The notes beneath the pieces were generated by a model. That model saw only the letters and a list, made by a program, of their open reading frames with translations, was not told where the DNA came from and searched no databases. Positions 33,514 through 48,936 of a stretch of 64,000 nt of DNA are shown one piece after another. Each line of letters opens with the position of its first letter. Positions within the stretch are counted from its first letter, which is position 1. The DNA is from Nitrospiraceae bacterium (GTDB lineage Bacteria; Nitrospirota; Nitrospiria; Nitrospirales; Nitrospiraceae): assembly GCA_050246315.1 (NCBI GenBank), contig JBFWWG010000002.1, positions 428,811 through 492,810 of the forward strand, in the 5' to 3' direction. Made by a program: the position numbers and the translations under genes.

Positions 33514-35769
33514 ATGACGACCCACACCACGAATTCCGTGCCAGGAGCCACCCATGAACGCAGTCCCCTCTCGGAGAACGCTCTCACCGTCCTCCGCGAA
33601 CGGTACCTGGCCAAGGACGATCATGGGACTCCGATCGAGACGGTGGACCAGCTCTGGGAGCGCGTCGCTCGCGAGATTGCCGTTGTCGAGACCTTGTACG
33701 GTGCGACGGCCGAGGAGGTCGACTCGGTCCAGGAGCAGTTCAGGCATCTGCTCGCCTCTCGAAAATTCCTGCCTAATTCCCCCACCCTCATGAACGCCGG
33801 CCGCGCCGGAGCCCACAAACAATACTCCGCCTGCTTCGTCATCCCCATCGAAGACGACATGGAGTCCATTGGGAACGCCGTGACAGCCGCGTTGCTGATT
33901 CACAAGAGCGGAGGAGGTACGGGATTTTCGTTCTCTAAGTTGCGTCCGAAGGGCGATCGCGTGAGGAGTTCGGGCGGCGTGGCGTCCGGCCCGGTCTCCT
34001 TCATGAAGATCATCGACGGCGCCACCGAACAGGTACGCCAGGGTGGAACCCGCAGGGGGGCGAACATGGGCATTCTCCACGTCCAGCACCCGGACATCTT
34101 GGACTTCGTGAGTTGCAAGACTCAGGACGGCCAGATCCGCAACTTCAACATCAGCGTGGCCGCCACCGACGAGTTCATGACAGCGGTCAAGGAGGACAGG
34201 CCCTACGCCCTGATTAATCCCCGCACGAAGCACCCTGTCCAGGAAGTCTCCGCACGGCTGGTCTTCGATCGCATCGTCGAGGAGGCCTGGAAGACCGGCG
34301 ATCCCGGGCTTTTCTTCATTGACCGCGCGAACCGGGCCTGCCCCATTCCCGCGATGGGCGAAATCGTCTCGACCAATCCCTGCGGTGAGATCCCTCTGCA
34401 TGGCTTCGATGCCTGCACGCTCGGCTCGATCGATCTGGCCAAACATCTTCGTCTCCAGCCCGGCCAGCGCCACTACGAGATGGACTGGGGTAGCCTCGAC
34501 CAGACGATCCGACTCGCGGTTCGATTCCTGGACAATACCATTGATGCCAACGACCATCCGCTTCCCGAGATCAACAGCATGACGCGACACACCCGCCGCA
34601 TCGGCCTCGGGATCATGGGCTATGCCCGGTTGTTGATGGCCTTGGGCCTTCCCTACGGGAGCGAAGAAGCCCTCCGAATTACGGAGCGGACCGCGGACCG
34701 GATGAAAGCCATGGCTTGGCGAGCGTCAGAGGAATTGGCCCACACACGAAGCGTCTATCCCGCTTGGAATGGAAGCACGCATGAACAGGAAGGGAGAAAG
34801 GTCCGCCACAGCTACGTCACGACCGTGGCGCCGACAGGCAGCATCAGCATGATCGCCGATACGAGCGCGGGCTGTGAGCCCGAGTTCGCGCTGGTCTGGT
34901 TCAAGCAGGTCCTCGAAGGCAAGAAGCTCCCCTACCTGTGCGACCTCTTCGAAGCCACGGCCAGGCGCGAAGGCTGGTGGCACGATCATCTCCTCGACAA
35001 GATCGCCGCCAACCACGGGTCTTGCCGTGGGCTCCAGGAAGTCCCTGACCACTGGCAAAACGTCTTTACCGTGGCTCACGATCTCACCCCTGAGCAGCAT
35101 GTCCGGGTCCAGGCTGCCTGGCAGCGCTTTAGCGACACCGCCGTGAGCAAGACCATCAACCTGCGAGGCACGTCCACGATAGAAGATGTCCGCCACGCCT
35201 ACCTGCTCGCCTGGGAACTCGATTGCAGCGGTATCACGGTCTACCGCGATGGGAGCCGCGCCAACCAGGTGCTGAATCTCGGCAAGGCGGACAGCGATGG
35301 GAAGGTTCGCGATCACGGAGCAAGCGAGGCGGAGGACGGAGACCTCCCTGTCGCCAACCCCTTCGAGCTACCGGATGTCCTGGACGCGAAGCGCGTGCAT
35401 GTGAACACCACCGATGGTCACGTCTACGTCACGATTTCGACCTTCAGGACCAGGCCGATCGAGGTCTTCATCCACACGCCCGTCGAGGCCAGCAACGCTG
35501 AAATCTACGAATCCTTTGCGCGGGTGCTCTCCATCTCCTTACGATCGGGGGTGCCCGTGGAGGCCTTGCTCGAACAACTCGAAAAAGCCAACCAACGATA
35601 CGGATCGGTCGCAAGCATCCCAGCCGCCATCATCCGAGCACTCCGCATGAGCCAACTGGTCAAAGAGAACGGCAACGGCCTCCCTCCCTGCCCGCAATGC
35701 GGCCAGAGCACCATTCGGCAGGAGAACTGCCTCGTGTGCCGGCAATGCGGCTGGACCAAGTGCAGCTGA
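33514..35769 (+). CDS. nrdJ: Class II (AdoCbl-dependent) ribonucleotide reductase
   Basis: FLPNSPTLMNAG, SACFV, GGTRRGANM, TNPCGE, RRIGLG, APTGSIS, C-terminal Cys ribbon; no nrdB nearby. Confidence 0.92.
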   Translation: MTTHTTNSVPGATHERSPLSENALTVLRERYLAKDDHGTPIETVDQLWERVAREIAVVETLYGATAEEVDSVQEQFRHLLASRKFLPNSPTLMNAGRAGAHKQYSACFVIPIEDDMESIGNAVTAALLIHKSGGGTGFSFSKLRPKGDRVRSSGGVASGPVSFMKIIDGATEQVRQGGTRRGANMGILHVQHPDILDFVSCKTQDGQIRNFNISVAATDEFMTAVKEDRPYALINPRTKHPVQEVSARLVFDRIVEEAWKTGDPGLFFIDRANRACPIPAMGEIVSTNPCGEIPLHGFDACTLGSIDLAKHLRLQPGQRHYEMDWGSLDQTIRLAVRFLDNTIDANDHPLPEINSMTRHTRRIGLGIMGYARLLMALGLPYGSEEALRITERTADRMKAMAWRASEELAHTRSVYPAWNGSTHEQEGRKVRHSYVTTVAPTGSISMIADTSAGCEPEFALVWFKQVLEGKKLPYLCDLFEATARREGWWHDHLLDKIAANHGSCRGLQEVPDHWQNVFTVAHDLTPEQHVRVQAAWQRFSDTAVSKTINLRGTSTIEDVRHAYLLAWELDCSGITVYRDGSRANQVLNLGKADSDGKVRDHGASEAEDGDLPVANPFELPDVLDAKRVHVNTTDGHVYVTISTFRTRPIEVFIHTPVEASNAEIYESFARVLSISLRSGVPVEALLEQLEKANQRYGSVASIPAAIIRALRMSQLVKENGNGLPPCPQCGQSTIRQENCLVCRQCGWTKCS

Positions 35770-36453: not shown

Positions 36454-37980
36454 ATGCAGACTTCCATGCCTGATCTCGTGGCGCAGTTCGTCCGCGCCCG
36501 CAGGGTCTCCGTTCCTCTGCTCGCCATCACCACACCAGATCCTGCCGCCACGATCGGCCTGATCCGGACCTACGGGTTGCGCAGTCCCGGCTCCGATCAG
36601 GAAGACCCCGTTTTTTCCTGGGACGTCAGCCGAGGGCTCATGCCGGTCAACAGCGCGGCGGACAAGGCCTTGGCTGCGCTGCTGGGAACAGGCAAAGCCA
36701 ACGTCACGATCAATCCCTCGGAAACCCTCAAGCTCCTCGCGAATGTGCCCCCGAAGAGCGTGGTGTTCTTTCACAATGCCCACCGCTTCATTCGCAACGA
36801 GTTTGTCTCGCAAGGGATCTGGAATCTGCGCGATGTCTTCAAAGGGAAACCGGCGATCCTCGTCTTGCTGGCTCCCGCCATCGACGTGCCGACGGAACTC
36901 TTCCATGATCTGCTGGTCCTGGAAGAAACCTTGCCAGGCCGGGAGCAACTGGCCGCGACCATCAAGGACCAATGCGTCCAGGCGCAGATCGAGCCTCCCT
37001 CCGAAGACGTCATGGCTCAGGCAGTCTCAGCCCTCCAGGGGCTCGCCGCCTTTCCGGCCGAACAGGTCGTGGCCCTCTCGCTCGGCAAAGCGAAGGGCCT
37101 CAACCTGGCGCGGCTCTGGGAACGGAAACGGCAAATGATCAACGCGACACCCGGCCTCTCCGTGTGGAGCGGGAACGAACGGTTTCAGGATATCGGCGGC
37201 GTGCAAGCCGCCAAAGACTTCCTGGTCAGGCTCTTCACCGGCAATGCTCCACCGAAGGCCGTCGTCTTCCTGGATGAGATCGAGAAGATGTTCAGCGGCT
37301 CCCTGTCCTCCAATCAGGATACGTCGGGCGTCACCGTCTCCATGTTGGGCACGCTGCTCACCTACATGCAAGACCACAAGGCGAGAGGCATCATCTTCGT
37401 CGGCCCGCCAGGGACCTGCAAATCCATGGTGGCCAAAGCCAGCGGCACGGAAGCCGGGGTGCCAGCGATCTGCTTCGACCTCGGCGCCATGAAAGCCTCG
37501 CTCGTGGGTCAATCGGAAGGCCAGCTGCGGCAAGCGCTCAGCGTCGTCAGCGCCGTCGCCGAAGACAATGTGCTGTTCATCGCTACCAGCAACAATGTGA
37601 GCGCCCTCCCCCCGGAGCTGCTCCGCCGCTTCAAATACGGCATCATGTTCTTCGACCTGCCCTCCGCCTCGGAGCGGGACAGCATCTGGGGCATCTATCG
37701 CAAACAGTTCCGGATCCCGGCTGAGATGGCCCAGCCGCCAGACCAGGGCTGGACCGGCGATGAGATCCGGACCTGTTGCGAGCTGAGCTGGCAGCTCGGA
37801 TGCTCCCTGGAGGAAGCCAGCGCCTACATCATCCCCGTCTCGATCCGCGCCGCGGACCAGCTCAAGGAGCTGCGCTCGCAAGCCAATTACCGGTACCTCT
37901 CCGCTAGCTACCCGGGCCCCTATCTCATGGACAAGGCCGAAGCGGCCCAGGGACCGAGCCCTCGCATGTACGTGGCCTAG
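36454..37980 (+). CDS. Ycf46-like AAA+ ATPase with permuted Walker B/Walker A order
   Basis: DIGG, VVFLDEIEK (37261-37287), GPPGTCKS (37402-37425), LVGQSE, IATSN, LPPELLRRF, FFDLP, WTGDEI. Confidence 0.9.
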   Translation: MQTSMPDLVAQFVRARRVSVPLLAITTPDPAATIGLIRTYGLRSPGSDQEDPVFSWDVSRGLMPVNSAADKALAALLGTGKANVTINPSETLKLLANVPPKSVVFFHNAHRFIRNEFVSQGIWNLRDVFKGKPAILVLLAPAIDVPTELFHDLLVLEETLPGREQLAATIKDQCVQAQIEPPSEDVMAQAVSALQGLAAFPAEQVVALSLGKAKGLNLARLWERKRQMINATPGLSVWSGNERFQDIGGVQAAKDFLVRLFTGNAPPKAVVFLDEIEKMFSGSLSSNQDTSGVTVSMLGTLLTYMQDHKARGIIFVGPPGTCKSMVAKASGTEAGVPAICFDLGAMKASLVGQSEGQLRQALSVVSAVAEDNVLFIATSNNVSALPPELLRRFKYGIMFFDLPSASERDSIWGIYRKQFRIPAEMAQPPDQGWTGDEIRTCCELSWQLGCSLEEASAYIIPVSIRAADQLKELRSQANYRYLSASYPGPYLMDKAEAAQGPSPRMYVA

Positions 37981-38017: not shown

Positions 38018-38332
38018 ATGCCTTGCTGGATGACCGTCACCACCACCGTCGAACTCAAAGCCGCCGATCAGACGCTCCTCACACAGGCCGCTGAACGGCT
38101 CGGCTGGACCGTGATTCCCGAGGGAGAGGTCCTTCGCATCCAGACACCCGACGGGATGACGCTCCTCGTGTCCGCCCAGTCGGCCGTAGTTCCCCGCGGC
38201 CAGGAAGAACTGGTCACGACGCTCCAACGATCCTACGCCCACCAGATTCTTGACAGCGTGGCCTCCCGATTCGGCTGGACACTCGAATCCACCGACAGCT
38301 CGGAATCCAATTTCGTCCTCAGCAAATTCTGA
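38018..38332 (+). CDS. DUF1257/Ycf35-like small protein
   Basis: TVEL..D..LL..A...LGW and L.RSYA.......A...GW patterns; next to the Ycf46-like AAA gene. Confidence 0.55.
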   Translation: MPCWMTVTTTVELKAADQTLLTQAAERLGWTVIPEGEVLRIQTPDGMTLLVSAQSAVVPRGQEELVTTLQRSYAHQILDSVASRFGWTLESTDSSESNFVLSKF

Positions 38333-38355: not shown

Positions 38356-38577
38356 ATGCACAGCCCTGACGCCATTCACGTGCACATCGCACAGGACGGA
38401 ACCCTGACGATCACCACGGACGACATCGGCATGCCCAACCACCGAGAGGCAGACGACTTACTCAACCTGCTGAACCAACTCGCCGGCGGCCAGACCGAAT
38501 CCATTCAGCGGCCCGAACGCCTCCTCCATGAACAGCACGACGACCATTCGCACCTTCACCACTCACATCGCGCATGA
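38356..38577 (+). CDS. DUF2997-like small protein with His-rich tail
   Basis: IHVHIAQDGTLTITT N-terminus; HEQHDDHSHLHHSH tail. Confidence 0.55.
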   Translation: MHSPDAIHVHIAQDGTLTITTDDIGMPNHREADDLLNLLNQLAGGQTESIQRPERLLHEQHDDHSHLHHSHRA

Positions 38578-39491
38578 GGTTCCCCATGGACACCCCACAA
38601 GCCTCCCTGTCCGCACTCTGGAAAAACGCGGTTTGCCTCGTCCTCACGTTACGGAAACTCGGCATCAAGCGGACCGTCCGCCAGGACGTGCTCGCCATCG
38701 AGACCGACCGCGCCCTGGTCAAGGTGACCAAGGCGATCCTGGCCTGTCCTGAATACAAGGAAATCACGAAGCTGGATGCCCAGATCCGCAAGAAACTCTC
38801 CAGCTATACGCTGCCGTCTTCCCTCAGGCCGGGGATCTACCTCGTTCCCAATGCGCTCCTGGAAGAGGTCGATGAGCTCATCATGAACTTCAAAGAGAAA
38901 CGGGAGAGCCTGATCGACTATTTTGTGCAGGTCTACCCCAAGAGCAGAGAAGAAGCCCAACTCAAGCTGGCCGACCTCTACAACCCAGCGGATTACCCGG
39001 ACGTGGACACCGTCAAGGCGGGCTTTCTCTTCGAATGCCAATATCTGACGTTCGACCTTCCCGGAACCCTGAGTACCCTCAGCGAGCGGCTGCTGACGCG
39101 TGAGACCGAAAACGTCTCACAAAAAGTCACGCAGATGCTCGATGATGCCAAGACCACGCTGCGCGAGGCGATGGCCGAGCTGGTCGATCACCTGATGGAG
39201 CGACTCACGCCCAACGCCAATGGCAAGGCCAAGACCTTCAAGGCCGGCACGGTGACCAACCTGATGGACTTCTTGAACCGATTCGATGCGCGCAATCTCA
39301 GCCAGGATTTGGACTTACAGAAGCTCGTGAATCAGGCCGAGGGCCTCCTCTCCGGGATGGAACCGAGTCGCATCCGGAAGGACGAATCCGTGGCCACGGT
39401 CGTTCGCGAAGGGATGCGAGCGATCAAGTCCCAGCTGGATGAGCTACTGGTCGAGAAGCCGTCGCGCGTCTACGTGCTGGAGGATGAATAG
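38574..39491 (+). CDS. DUF3150-like protein
   Basis: GIYLVP, F...YP, LYNPADYP; all-helical; ATGA overlap with the upstream gene. Confidence 0.6.
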   Translation: MRFPMDTPQASLSALWKNAVCLVLTLRKLGIKRTVRQDVLAIETDRALVKVTKAILACPEYKEITKLDAQIRKKLSSYTLPSSLRPGIYLVPNALLEEVDELIMNFKEKRESLIDYFVQVYPKSREEAQLKLADLYNPADYPDVDTVKAGFLFECQYLTFDLPGTLSTLSERLLTRETENVSQKVTQMLDDAKTTLREAMAELVDHLMERLTPNANGKAKTFKAGTVTNLMDFLNRFDARNLSQDLDLQKLVNQAEGLLSGMEPSRIRKDESVATVVREGMRAIKSQLDELLVEKPSRVYVLEDE

Positions 39492-45322: not shown

Positions 45323-45391
45323 CCTCTCGATTGCTTCGCGTGACGATTCCAAAATATCAATCACGTTCTCTCCAGCTACGTGGAGGTTGTC

Positions 45392-46525
45392 ATGAAGTTC
45401 ACGTGCACCCGCGGCATCCTGCTGGGCGCCATCCGGAATCTGCTCAGCCTCACCTCGACTAGGTCCACGCTCCCCATCCTTGCCAATGCCCTCCTGGAGA
45501 CCACGCCCACGGGCCTCAAGGTCTTGAGCACCGACCTCGAAACCGGATTCCAAGGCACCTACGACGCCAGCATCCAGAAACCCGGACGCGTCACCGTCAA
45601 CGCTCGTGCCCTCTGCGATGTGCTCAAGGAACTCGATCCCGAGCATCCCATCACCTGGCAGGCTGACGACAAACACGTGATCAGGCTCGTGTCCGGGAAC
45701 AGCCGCTTCACGCTCCACGGCCTGCCCGCGGATGACTATCCCCAGCTCCCTGCGTTTGATGAGCCCGCTCAGGTCAGCATCCCCAGCACCGATCTCCTCA
45801 CATGCCTGCAGCAGGTCCTTCCCGCTGTTCCCGATCAGGACCAACGGTTCGTCCTGCAGTCCGTGCTCGTCACCATCGGTACACAGCCTGCACAGGAATC
45901 ACCGGCGATCGAACTCGTCGGAACCGACGGGCACCGTTTGGCCATCGCTCAATCACTCGCCGGCAGGTGGATGACCTCCACGCCCCAGCAGCTCAGCGCC
46001 CTCATTCCCAAGAAAGCCGCTCAGTTGCTCGCCACGCTGCTCGCTCAGGAAAATGCGCTGGATGTTCCCATCGCCGTCTCCAAGAAACTCTTTTGCGTGA
46101 CCGTCAAGAACGTCATCCTGACGAGCCGCCTAGTCGAAGGGACTTATCCCAACTACCAGCAAGTGATCCCGATCGTGAACGGTGCGCGTATGGAGATCGG
46201 CCGCGAAATCTTCGAAGAGGCGCTCCACCGAGTGGCTGTGGTGTCCCGCGACCATACCCAAGCCGTGCGTCTGGCTCTGACGCCTGACACCCTTACGATC
46301 CATGCCCAGAATGCGGACGTCGGGGAAGGAACTGAAAGTATCCCGGCTGTCGTCGCCGACAAGGAATTCAAGGCTGGCTTCAACGCCCGCTATCTGCTGG
46401 ACGCGCTTCGGACCTGTCCAGGCGAGCGCCTTCAACTGCATATGAAGGAACCGCTCAGTCCTTGTGTCCTCGTGTGCCCTGGCAGGCAGACTGGCTGGAA
46501 GCACGTGATCATGCCGGTCCGCTAG
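45392..46525 (+). CDS. dnaN: DNA polymerase III beta sliding clamp
   Basis: TLPILAN, STDLE, VGTDGHRLA, SRLVEGTYPNY, FNARYLLD, VIMPVR. Confidence 0.95.
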   Translation: MKFTCTRGILLGAIRNLLSLTSTRSTLPILANALLETTPTGLKVLSTDLETGFQGTYDASIQKPGRVTVNARALCDVLKELDPEHPITWQADDKHVIRLVSGNSRFTLHGLPADDYPQLPAFDEPAQVSIPSTDLLTCLQQVLPAVPDQDQRFVLQSVLVTIGTQPAQESPAIELVGTDGHRLAIAQSLAGRWMTSTPQQLSALIPKKAAQLLATLLAQENALDVPIAVSKKLFCVTVKNVILTSRLVEGTYPNYQQVIPIVNGARMEIGREIFEEALHRVAVVSRDHTQAVRLALTPDTLTIHAQNADVGEGTESIPAVVADKEFKAGFNARYLLDALRTCPGERLQLHMKEPLSPCVLVCPGRQTGWKHVIMPVR

Positions 46526-47700: not shown

Positions 47701-48936
47701 GTGATACCGCCTATGGCACGTCTGCAAAAACAGCGTGGTATTTGGACGCTCGAATTTAAATGCCTCCCAGGATGCCCAAACCATCCTTCTGGCGGTCTCC
47801 GCCACCACCATTCCCTCAGAACACGTGATGCCAGCCTTGCAGAGGAACTTTTCAAAGACTTCAAGCGAAAGCAGGAGGAAGATCGAGCGCGTCTAACCTT
47901 GCGGCTCCCGGTCGCCCATCCCGACGCAAAGCGGACGATCAGTGTCGCAACGCAGGAATACTTCCGTACAATGGCTGTAGAAAAGAGTCCGGCAACGATC
48001 AAGCGCGTCGAACGCCCTGCGACGACGCATCTGATCAAGCTACTTGGTGACATTCCGATTCATACGGTCGATGCAACCAAGATAGGTAATTACCGTGCCA
48101 GGTTTCTTGAGAACCATGCCCCAGCCACGTGGAATAGTCGGCGGGCCACTCTTAGAGCCATGTGGAATTGGTTCCTGAGACGCGGGTGGGTCGATGAGAA
48201 TCCTTTCGTCGAAGTGGGCGAGGTGCCGGACTTCGAGGATACACACCGGCTCCAGCCTGTGGCGCAGACCCGCTTGGCTGATGTGCTTTCAGCCCTGCCC
48301 GACCGAGGCTGGCAGCTTGTAGCCCTTTTCCTTTATCAGTCTCTCTGCCGAATCGATGAGCTTTGCAATCTCCGCAGAGATGACGTTCTCCGCGAGGAGG
48401 GCGTGATCCGATTTCGAAGGCCGAAGGAGCGGAAGAACAAGCGCATCAGGTACAAATACGTCGCCTTGACACCAGAACTTCTGGACATCATCAACGAGGC
48501 TGAGTCTCGGTGTGCGAGCGAATACGTTTTCTCACGAATTGAACGAGAAGGCCGCGCATTAAAGCGTCGCAAGGTTCACCACGTGCTCTTTAAAGCCGGG
48601 AAGCGGGTCGGCCTTGTAGTGTCCCCACACAGATTACGAAAATCAGGGGGTACTCACGCGCTCCAAAGAGGGAGCGCAAGTCTAAAGACCGTTCAAGAGA
48701 TCATGGGACACAGCGATATCCGCACGACTGCTCGTTATTTGCGTCCAGACTTAGAGGAGCAGCGAATCGCTCTCTCTGGTCTGAATATTTCACGACTCAA
48801 GAACGTTCCGAACACAGTGTTTCAGCAAGAAGCCAGGCAACTGGTCCAGAAGGCGCAGGCCGCTAGAAAGCAGAAAGCCGCCGCCGGCCGTCGTCATTTT
48901 ACACACGCCGACAAAGATGAGAACACAAGCCCTTGA
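47701..48936 (+). CDS. Tyrosine recombinase/integrase
   Basis: CRIDE (Arg), HRLR, MGHSD, TTARY catalytic motifs; adjacent to the tRNA fragment. Confidence 0.93.
   Translation: MIPPMARLQKQRGIWTLEFKCLPGCPNHPSGGLRHHHSLRTRDASLAEELFKDFKRKQEEDRARLTLRLPVAHPDAKRTISVATQEYFRTMAVEKSPATIKRVERPATTHLIKLLGDIPIHTVDATKIGNYRARFLENHAPATWNSRRATLRAMWNWFLRRGWVDENPFVEVGEVPDFEDTHRLQPVAQTRLADVLSALPDRGWQLVALFLYQSLCRIDELCNLRRDDVLREEGVIRFRRPKERKNKRIRYKYVALTPELLDIINEAESRCASEYVFSRIEREGRALKRRKVHHVLFKAGKRVGLVVSPHRLRKSGGTHALQRGSASLKTVQEIMGHSDIRTTARYLRPDLEEQRIALSGLNISRLKNVPNTVFQQEARQLVQKAQAARKQKAAAGRRHFTHADKDENTSP

Follow-up and report, generated by a model that had tools for sequence, protein, structure and literature searches.

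A family of tandem AAA ATPases from phages, plasmids and conjugative elements with the Walker B block ahead of the Walker A block

Can the order of the motifs in an AAA ATPase be changed while the fold is kept? Few protein folds have been studied as much as the AAA+ core, and the order of its motifs is regarded as fixed; in classical AAA proteins it is Walker A, pore loop 1, Walker B, sensor 1 and second region of homology. The question is raised by an open reading frame (ORF) in a stretch of 64,000 nucleotides from a Nitrospiraceae bacterium (GenBank assembly GCA_050246315.1, contig JBFWWG010000002.1, forward-strand positions 428,811 to 492,810). This whole stretch is called the window, and nucleotide positions are counted from its first letter. 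An initial annotation made from the letters alone placed Walker B ahead of Walker A at 37180-37640 and took this for an internal permutation of the AAA core that had arisen naturally and in frame. The order is borne out by the positions of the motifs and by alignment to proteins of known order, and we hold with great confidence that the core is permuted with its fold retained. The overall explanation, a two-domain ATPase of the classical AAA clade, we regard as highly likely. The gene and its parts are the following, with residue numbers of the protein in brackets.

36454..37980, plus strand: permuted tandem AAA ATPase (P0001), 508 amino acids, a single uninterrupted ORF with a Pfam AAA match
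36454..37143, plus strand (residues ~1-230): D1, degenerate AAA-like domain in canonical order, from AlphaFold2 secondary structure, fold alignment and sequence reading
37189..37239, plus strand (residues 246-262): DIGG motif and helix a0, the entry to D2, from sequence, alignment and AlphaFold2
37189-37200, plus strand (residues 246-249): DIGG
37249..37380, plus strand (residues 266-309): block B, relocated, with strand b3 carrying Walker B (D274, E275), a loop corresponding to pore loop 2, and helix a3, from BLASTP, segment profile s2 and conservation
37258-37287, plus strand (residues 269-278): Walker B, AVVFLDEIEK, with D274/E275 at 37273-37278
37381..37566, plus strand (residues 310-371): block A, with strand b1, Walker A, helix a1, strand b2, pore loop and helix a2, from phmmer, BLASTP and conservation
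37402-37425, plus strand (residues 317-324): Walker A, GPPGTCKS
37501-37518, plus strand (residues 350-355): pore loop, LVGQSE
37567..37977, plus strand: remainder of D2 in canonical order, with strand b4 carrying sensor 1, R391/R392, strand b5 and a helical lid with a WTG(A/D)E motif, from phmmer, AlphaFold2 and fold alignment
37579-37593, plus strand (residues 376-380): sensor 1, IATSN, with T378/N380
37606-37632, plus strand (residues 385-393): LPPELLRRF, with R391/R392 at 37624-37629

The motifs of D2 run Walker B, Walker A, pore loop, sensor 1, arginine fingers, which is not the classical linear order. Walker B contains the expected hhhhDE pattern (VVFLDE at 270-275) and lies 48 residues ahead of Walker A. 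The protein passes the threshold of the Pfam AAA model (PF00004) with 61.8 bits against a cut-off of 21.2, but the match is broken into three stretches. Of the two AAA-like domains it is the second that is permuted, a point that goes beyond the initial annotation. D1 lacks the Walker A lysine as well as the Walker B acids, as judged by reading TPDPAAT at the position of the P-loop and FFHNAHRF at that of Walker B. The gene is present as a single copy in its own genome.

The exchange is seen directly when the protein is aligned to proteins of canonical order. A phmmer search of solved structures ranks Cdc48/p97 first, and the matching pieces are residues 310-376 with Cdc48 521-586 (Walker A to helix a2), residues 266-316 with Cdc48 579-629 (Walker B and helix a3) and residues 351-413 with Cdc48 604-668 (sensor 1 and second region of homology). 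These pieces align in exchanged order, and therefore the Walker B block precedes the Walker A block. Closer relatives of canonical order are found among phages and plasmids. Against the AAA protein of Rhizobium phage vB_RleS_L338C (AHC30467.1) BLASTP gives two high-scoring segment pairs in exchanged order. One aligns residues 311-425 with 297-451 of the phage protein, with a gap of 38 residues that coincides exactly with the Walker B block of the phage; the other aligns residues 258-310 with that very block (348-395, 40% identity, E 1e-5). With the protein of Agrobacterium phage JP1 (XLQ31056.1) reciprocal gaps are seen. We used nine such canonical-order references, the two phage proteins and seven plasmid proteins from Manganitrophus (the Candidatus Manganitrophus plasmid, WDT77853.1), Treponema, Paenarthrobacter, Bacillus, Thermovibrio, Planktothrix and Clostridium; they share the two-domain plan, with a dead D1 and an active D2, and the lid motifs of the window protein.

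The order of the blocks was scored with profiles of four segments, cut from an 83-row alignment of the family: s1 (residues 1-262), s2 (263-309, the moved block), s3 (310-371) and s4 (372-495). Motif regular expressions mis-scored some proteins (30 canonical P-loops with an initial Ser and two proteins with a second GxxGxxKS-like string), and the segment profiles were used instead. For the canonical proteins a second scan of IMG/VR was made with these as queries; it gave 491 relatives, and the analysis used the 80 best loci. All of these 80 viral loci and all nine phage and plasmid references have the order s1-s3-s2-s4 (89/89). Although the s2 profile was built from permuted proteins only, it recognises the moved block in the 89 canonical relatives with a median of 43.3 bits (minimum 17.2, worst independent E-value 7.4e-5). 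The canonical relatives carry the moved block after Walker A, and therefore two neighbouring blocks have changed places. To call the rearrangement a swap of this kind describes it best and is more specific than the initial annotation. Block A comprises G-b1-P loop-a1-b2-pore loop-a2, and block B (A)P-b3-DE-loop-a3. The swap of [b1-a1-b2-a2] with [b3-a3] equals a circular permutation of the internal sub-region A-B.

Is this order a property of one protein or of a family? All 350 family proteins with matches to all four profiles have the permuted order s1-s2-s3-s4, namely 269/269 database proteins, 80/80 IMG/VR loci and gp103 of the cultured Tunturiibacter phage Tunturi_3 (36% identity). The same holds for 80/80 loci of species-representative genomes and for the window's own genome, and the order is unchanged in alignments of 17 and of 83 members. 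A word-indexed search gave 1071 relatives among 8000 scored candidates, the best 120 being full-length with 46-54% identity except for one at 92%. An exhaustive search of 1.84 billion cluster representatives gave 7241 at E<=1e-3 and 1216 at E<=1e-30, counts whose weak end includes ordinary AAA proteins. The 179 relatives found in genomes come from Nitrospirota, Acidobacteriota, Armatimonadota, Planctomycetota, Gemmatimonadota, Chloroflexota and others, and the family is carried by phages, plasmids and conjugative elements only. The closed chromosome of Nitrospira moscoviensis has two copies at two sites (L172 and L175), 92-93% identical to the window protein, which suggests two related elements in one genome.

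The catalytic residues are almost invariant when counted in 335 distinct permuted proteins. K323, G320, S/T324, E275 and N380 are found in 335/335, R392 and G352 in 334/335, D274 in 331/335 (the remaining four have E), T378 in 331/335 and R391 in 314/335. Position 350 of the pore loop is Leu in 269/335. This conservation supports the statement that every motif is retained. The P-loop was also said to read GTCKS; this is correct for the window protein, but the Cys is atypical of the family, as it occurs in 8/335, and Ala or Gly is usual at that place.

The structure of the protein was predicted by AlphaFold2 with the 83-row alignment. The model is confident (mean predicted local distance difference test, pLDDT, 94.2; predicted template modelling score 0.88) and AAA-like. 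D1 (1-230) is a b-a-b domain in normal order, and D2 has five strands, which in chain order are 269-273, 311-316, 338-341, 373-379 and 397-399. In Foldseek and VIA-align the type II classical AAA proteins come out on top over both domains (Cdc48/p97, NVL/Rix7, AFG2/Drg1), with Z 18-19 and ~400 residues aligned. D2 alone (232-481) aligns to D2 of p97 (3cf0_A) with Z 16.6 and a root mean square deviation of 2.5 A over 204 residues; only 204 of the 250 align because a 45-residue block cannot align in chain order.

Contacts were also sought by mean-field direct coupling analysis of only the permuted proteins (335 sequences, corresponding to an effective number of 255); the pairs given here are among the 60 top-ranking ones with a separation of 5 residues or more. 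An earlier analysis of a mixed, segment-concatenated alignment was discarded, as gap and boundary artefacts dominated it. The pair of rank 1 is 269-369, which together with 268-370 joins the start of b3 to the end of a2, adjacent in the canonical chain. The pairs 276-377, 271-375 and 274-378 put b3 beside b4 in parallel register, 271-341 and 307-340 put the moved block beside b2, 316-382 and 330-376 connect b1 and a1 with b4, and 315-400 connects b1 with b5. The Walker B region is coupled to the P-loop by 277-319, and many pairs link a3 with a2 and a3 with a4. Coevolution gives the sheet order b2-b3-b4-b1-b5, which is the classical 5-1-4-3-2. The fold appears to be retained despite the permutation, and we infer that the geometry of the active site of D2 would be intact. 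The idea of a natural internal permutation is supported by the homologues, the canonical relatives, the conserved residues, the AlphaFold2 model and coevolution together. The outcomes that would have spoken against it were not seen: there is no sign of misassembly, and homologues from independent assemblies have the same order.

How did the permuted proteins arise? A tree was made with FastTree (LG+gamma) from 423 distinct sequences and 484 profile columns, after 16 of 439 rows had been removed for being identical or having >40% gaps, and it was rooted on the Clostridium plasmid protein. In this tree, and in those made with s2 omitted or from D2 without s2, the 339 permuted tips fall together in a single clade that includes none of the 84 canonical tips (3/3 trees). 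Its stem is 0.68 substitutions per site long and its SH-like support 0.80; with s2 omitted the clade is kept at a support of 0.20, and with D2 without s2 the support is 0.86. The sister is a canonical clade of 34 tips, the parent node having a support of 1.0. On these sequences the permuted order would have a single origin nested among canonical proteins, with uneven support for the clade. The nearest canonical-order clade has a P-loop that begins with Ser (SPPGCGKS), and its loci (L113-L147) lie in many cases on IMG/VR contigs of ~200 kb. The simplest route would be an in-frame tandem duplication to A-B-A-B, after which the first A and the last B were lost.

Along the chain, D2 would run a0, B, A, b4 with sensor 1, arginine fingers, b5 and lid. 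The three reconnections would be a2 to b4 instead of b3, a3 to b1 instead of b4, and a0 to b3 instead of b1. The core strands would all be parallel, with each helix rejoining a strand one or two positions along the sheet, and it is for this reason that the swap could be tolerated. The three-dimensional fold and the composite ATP site would thereby be preserved. The assembly is probably a ring, as in the structural matches, and D2 probably hydrolyses ATP while the LVG pore loop pulls on or remodels a protein substrate.

The ATPase is followed by three ORFs:

38018..38332, plus strand: 104-amino-acid ORF, DUF1257-like with weak similarity (BLASTP E 3e-5 over 86 residues) to a DUF1257-annotated Manganitrophus plasmid gene
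38356..38577, plus strand: 73-amino-acid ORF, placed where related modules have DUF2997 genes, an assignment by position only
38574..39491, plus strand: 305-amino-acid ORF, divergent DUF3150 protein (28% identity, E 1e-41, to a DUF3150-annotated plasmid protein)

For the neighbours of 201, 104, 73 and 305 amino acids, scans of Pfam, PHROGs and NCBIfam had no usable result. The 104-amino-acid ORF has no direct Pfam match; its positional equivalent in one related locus (L220) matches PF06868 at 2.2e-7. The plasmid DUF2997 protein has matches in 22/80 permuted-family loci, and 19/60 homologues of the 305-amino-acid protein match PF11348. A member of this last family occurs in 77/80 viral loci; it shares the strand of the ATPase and lies mostly 0.1-3 kb downstream of it. 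In the three loci without it there is just ~0.6-2.1 kb of DNA downstream of the ATPase, which falls short of the gene's usual place in many loci. The AlphaFold2 model of the DUF3150 protein is confident (pLDDT 91) and has a small sheet at the N terminus, two helices of great length and a bundle of helices at the C terminus. Foldseek found nothing for this model at E<=0.001, and the best Z of 9.8 in the VIA-wide search covers the helical bundle only and is within the noise range for helical proteins. A complex prediction of the ATPase with the DUF3150 protein scored 0.01 against a mark of 0.32, a result that is uninformative either way.

The canonical-order relatives have the same partners, DUF1257, DUF2997 and DUF3150, often with a small 4Fe-4S/radical-SAM-like protein. 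Within the module of the permuted family a gene of ~200 amino acids for a 4Fe-4S single-cluster or radical-SAM-like protein was also observed, in 39/160 loci (for example L248 and L085-L087). On cyanobacterial chromosomes a cluster of DUF2997, ycf35 (DUF1257) and ferredoxin genes is described in PMC4284462. The 4Fe-4S neighbour and this ferredoxin link are hints of iron-sulfur or redox chemistry. We found no function assigned to the AAA-DUF1257-DUF2997-DUF3150 module in the literature that our search returned.

The element that carries the ATPase is an integrative conjugative element, which occupies 1-48936 of the window (to ~48.9 kb) and ends with a tyrosine integrase:

47701-48936: tyrosine integrase, at the element end

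The GC content falls from ~0.61 within the element to ~0.56 outside it, and the element end has no tRNA. The element has a full set of transfer genes of the F type (TraG, TraH, TraF, TraU, TrbC, TraC, TraV, TraB-like, TraK and TraE), with a coupling-protein-like gene. Other genes code for ParB, NrdJ, primase, SNF2 helicase, methyltransferase, DnaN, excisionase, a RecD2-like helicase, a Gp3-like directionality factor and a PIN protein. The element has a class II ribonucleotide reductase of its own, which includes a TSCPD domain, at 33514-35769 and a complete gene for the sliding clamp (DnaN) at 45380-46525; together with the primase and the SNF2 helicase beside them they make up an unusually rich replication set for a conjugative element.

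What does the ATPase do, and could the motif order be explained in another way? The order might have come about in the window through faulty assembly, a chimeric contig or a sequencing error. Nothing positive speaks for this, apart from the fact that the single contig over all three junctions (36900-37791, 0 differences), which is the sole one to span junction 1 (~nt 37249), belongs to a run that is possibly the source of the window itself. However, public contigs have no joints or indels over 36900-37900, and two contigs from other studies cross junctions 2 and 3 (X3, 37302-37722, 0 differences) or junction 2 (X4, 37268-37465). The artefact is refuted because independent homologues have the same order, in 269 database proteins, 160 viral and genome loci, the cultured phage and the closed N. 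moscoviensis chromosome, and its probability is negligible. It may also be asked if the DEIEK block is not the Walker B of its own D2 site but a separate element, or one that, through three-dimensional domain swapping, fills in the site of the adjacent subunit, since coevolution cannot separate contacts within a chain from those between identical chains. This is very improbable: the AlphaFold2 monomer is compact and confident over 263-316 (block pLDDT 83-98), only short loops flank the block (segment matches lie a median of 2 residues apart), canonical relatives have a homologous Walker B block in place, and the 17-member alignment has no other conserved acidic motif after helix a2.

As to the function, we propose tentatively, and with rather less than even confidence, that the ATPase is an ATP-driven protein remodeller acting with its co-inherited partners during replication or establishment. 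It would probably act jointly with the DUF1257-like, DUF2997-like and DUF3150 proteins in the replication or establishment of phages, plasmids and conjugative elements. We infer the ATPase activity, the oligomeric state, the substrate and the biological role from the comparisons above. A replication factor, for example a loader or an initiator-like ATPase working on DNA instead of a protein remodeller, could be argued from the place of the gene between NrdJ and the primase, helicase and DnaN genes, and from the SSB, primases and helicases that recur near homologues. Such a factor seems unlikely to us: the best sequence and fold matches are unfoldases of the classical clade (Cdc48/p97, Vps4, spastin, FtsH, PAN) and not members of the clamp-loader or initiator clades, the pore-loop position and the second region of homology are classical, and the constant neighbour is DUF3150 (130/160 loci) and not a replication gene, with no other neighbour cluster above 39. 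Still more doubtful is an anti-defence or establishment system in which the ATPase dismantles a host protein. The confinement of the family to phages, plasmids and conjugative elements would suit it, as would the ParB-like and orphan methyltransferase genes nearby in the window and a weak NCBIfam similarity to an anti-phage AAA ATPase (IteA), a similarity also shown to other classical AAA proteins. The module contains no known anti-defence family, although no PADLOC scan was made, and the cyanobacterial chromosomal DUF2997-DUF1257-ferredoxin clusters (PMC4284462) point to a housekeeping biochemical role.

Several points weigh against the permuted, ring-forming remodeller with its set of partners. 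No duplication intermediate with an extra s2 or s3 was seen among 251 loci. The clade support is uneven (0.80, 0.20, 0.86), the root is assumed, and the alignment profiles come from the permuted family. The sheet order is based on coevolution and on the arithmetic of aligned lengths, the nearness of D274/E275 to K323 is a predicted one, and AlphaFold2 and the coupling analysis share the covariation signal and are not mutually independent. The 73-amino-acid ORF has no BLAST or Pfam match and no link to DUF2997, the DUF3150 and DUF1257-like proteins of the window miss the Pfam models directly, and ATPase activity, ring formation and partners are predicted.

How does the window protein compare with known systems? 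The canonical phage and plasmid proteins accompany the same DUF1257, DUF2997 and DUF3150 genes and are its nearest relatives in the tree, with the moved block recognisable in all of them; they differ in that theirs is the order Walker A, pore loop, Walker B, sensor 1, whereas the clade of the window protein has Walker B first. The type II classical AAA proteins share the pore loop, sensor 1 and the paired arginines in the second region of homology. Unlike these, the window protein has no N-terminal adaptor domain and starts directly with D1, its D1 has no nucleotide site, its D2 is permuted, and the identity is 13-16%. The window protein belongs to the lineage that carries the label Ycf46-like in databases, a name that comes from an automatic Atlas label and not from a curated model. 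The nearest known precedent is that of the circularly permuted P-loop GTPases (YlqF/YawG, YjeQ/RsgA), in which a natural and conserved reordering of motifs leaves the activity intact. In the GTPases, however, the whole domain is circularly permuted, whereas in the AAA protein only an internal sub-region of the core has moved and both domain termini are in place. A full-text literature search, whose reach did not extend to most subscription journals, found no description of a permuted AAA core; the relevant passages of PMC7824862 and PMC10853773 deal with permuted methylases only.

A large natural family that keeps every catalytic residue with two blocks of the core exchanged shows that three strand-helix connections of the fold can be rewired. 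It is a natural experiment on chain connectivity and the coupling of ATP hydrolysis to pore loops, and serves as a worked case of how duplication and loss may permute a domain internally and not at its ends. The family moreover points to a four-gene module that is widespread in phages, plasmids and conjugative elements. The CDC48 model scores the permuted protein at 24 bits and a canonical relative at 87 bits; collinear profile searches score permuted proteins poorly, and such proteins are therefore under-annotated. One may go further and see here the first recognised natural, non-circular permutation of an AAA+ core that is fixed in a clade, with hundreds of members sampled from phages and mobile elements, and has a functional effect. 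The linker between D1 and D2 would enter directly at the Walker B strand and pore-loop-2 region, and through it the dead D1 or its bound partners might gate hydrolysis or the grip on the substrate in a way that is impossible in canonical AAA proteins. We consider this a long shot.

Inteins usually occupy functionally critical motifs, and some of the permuted proteins carry them. Walker A is interrupted in P0248 (GTGK|C...HN|S), P0177 and P0257, and sensor 1 in P0124 and P0268 (ATC|...HN|CN). These members reach a length of 810-896 amino acids because the inteins interrupt the P-loop or the sensor-1 motif. A shorter insert near residue 378 was observed in P0244, which has 653 amino acids.

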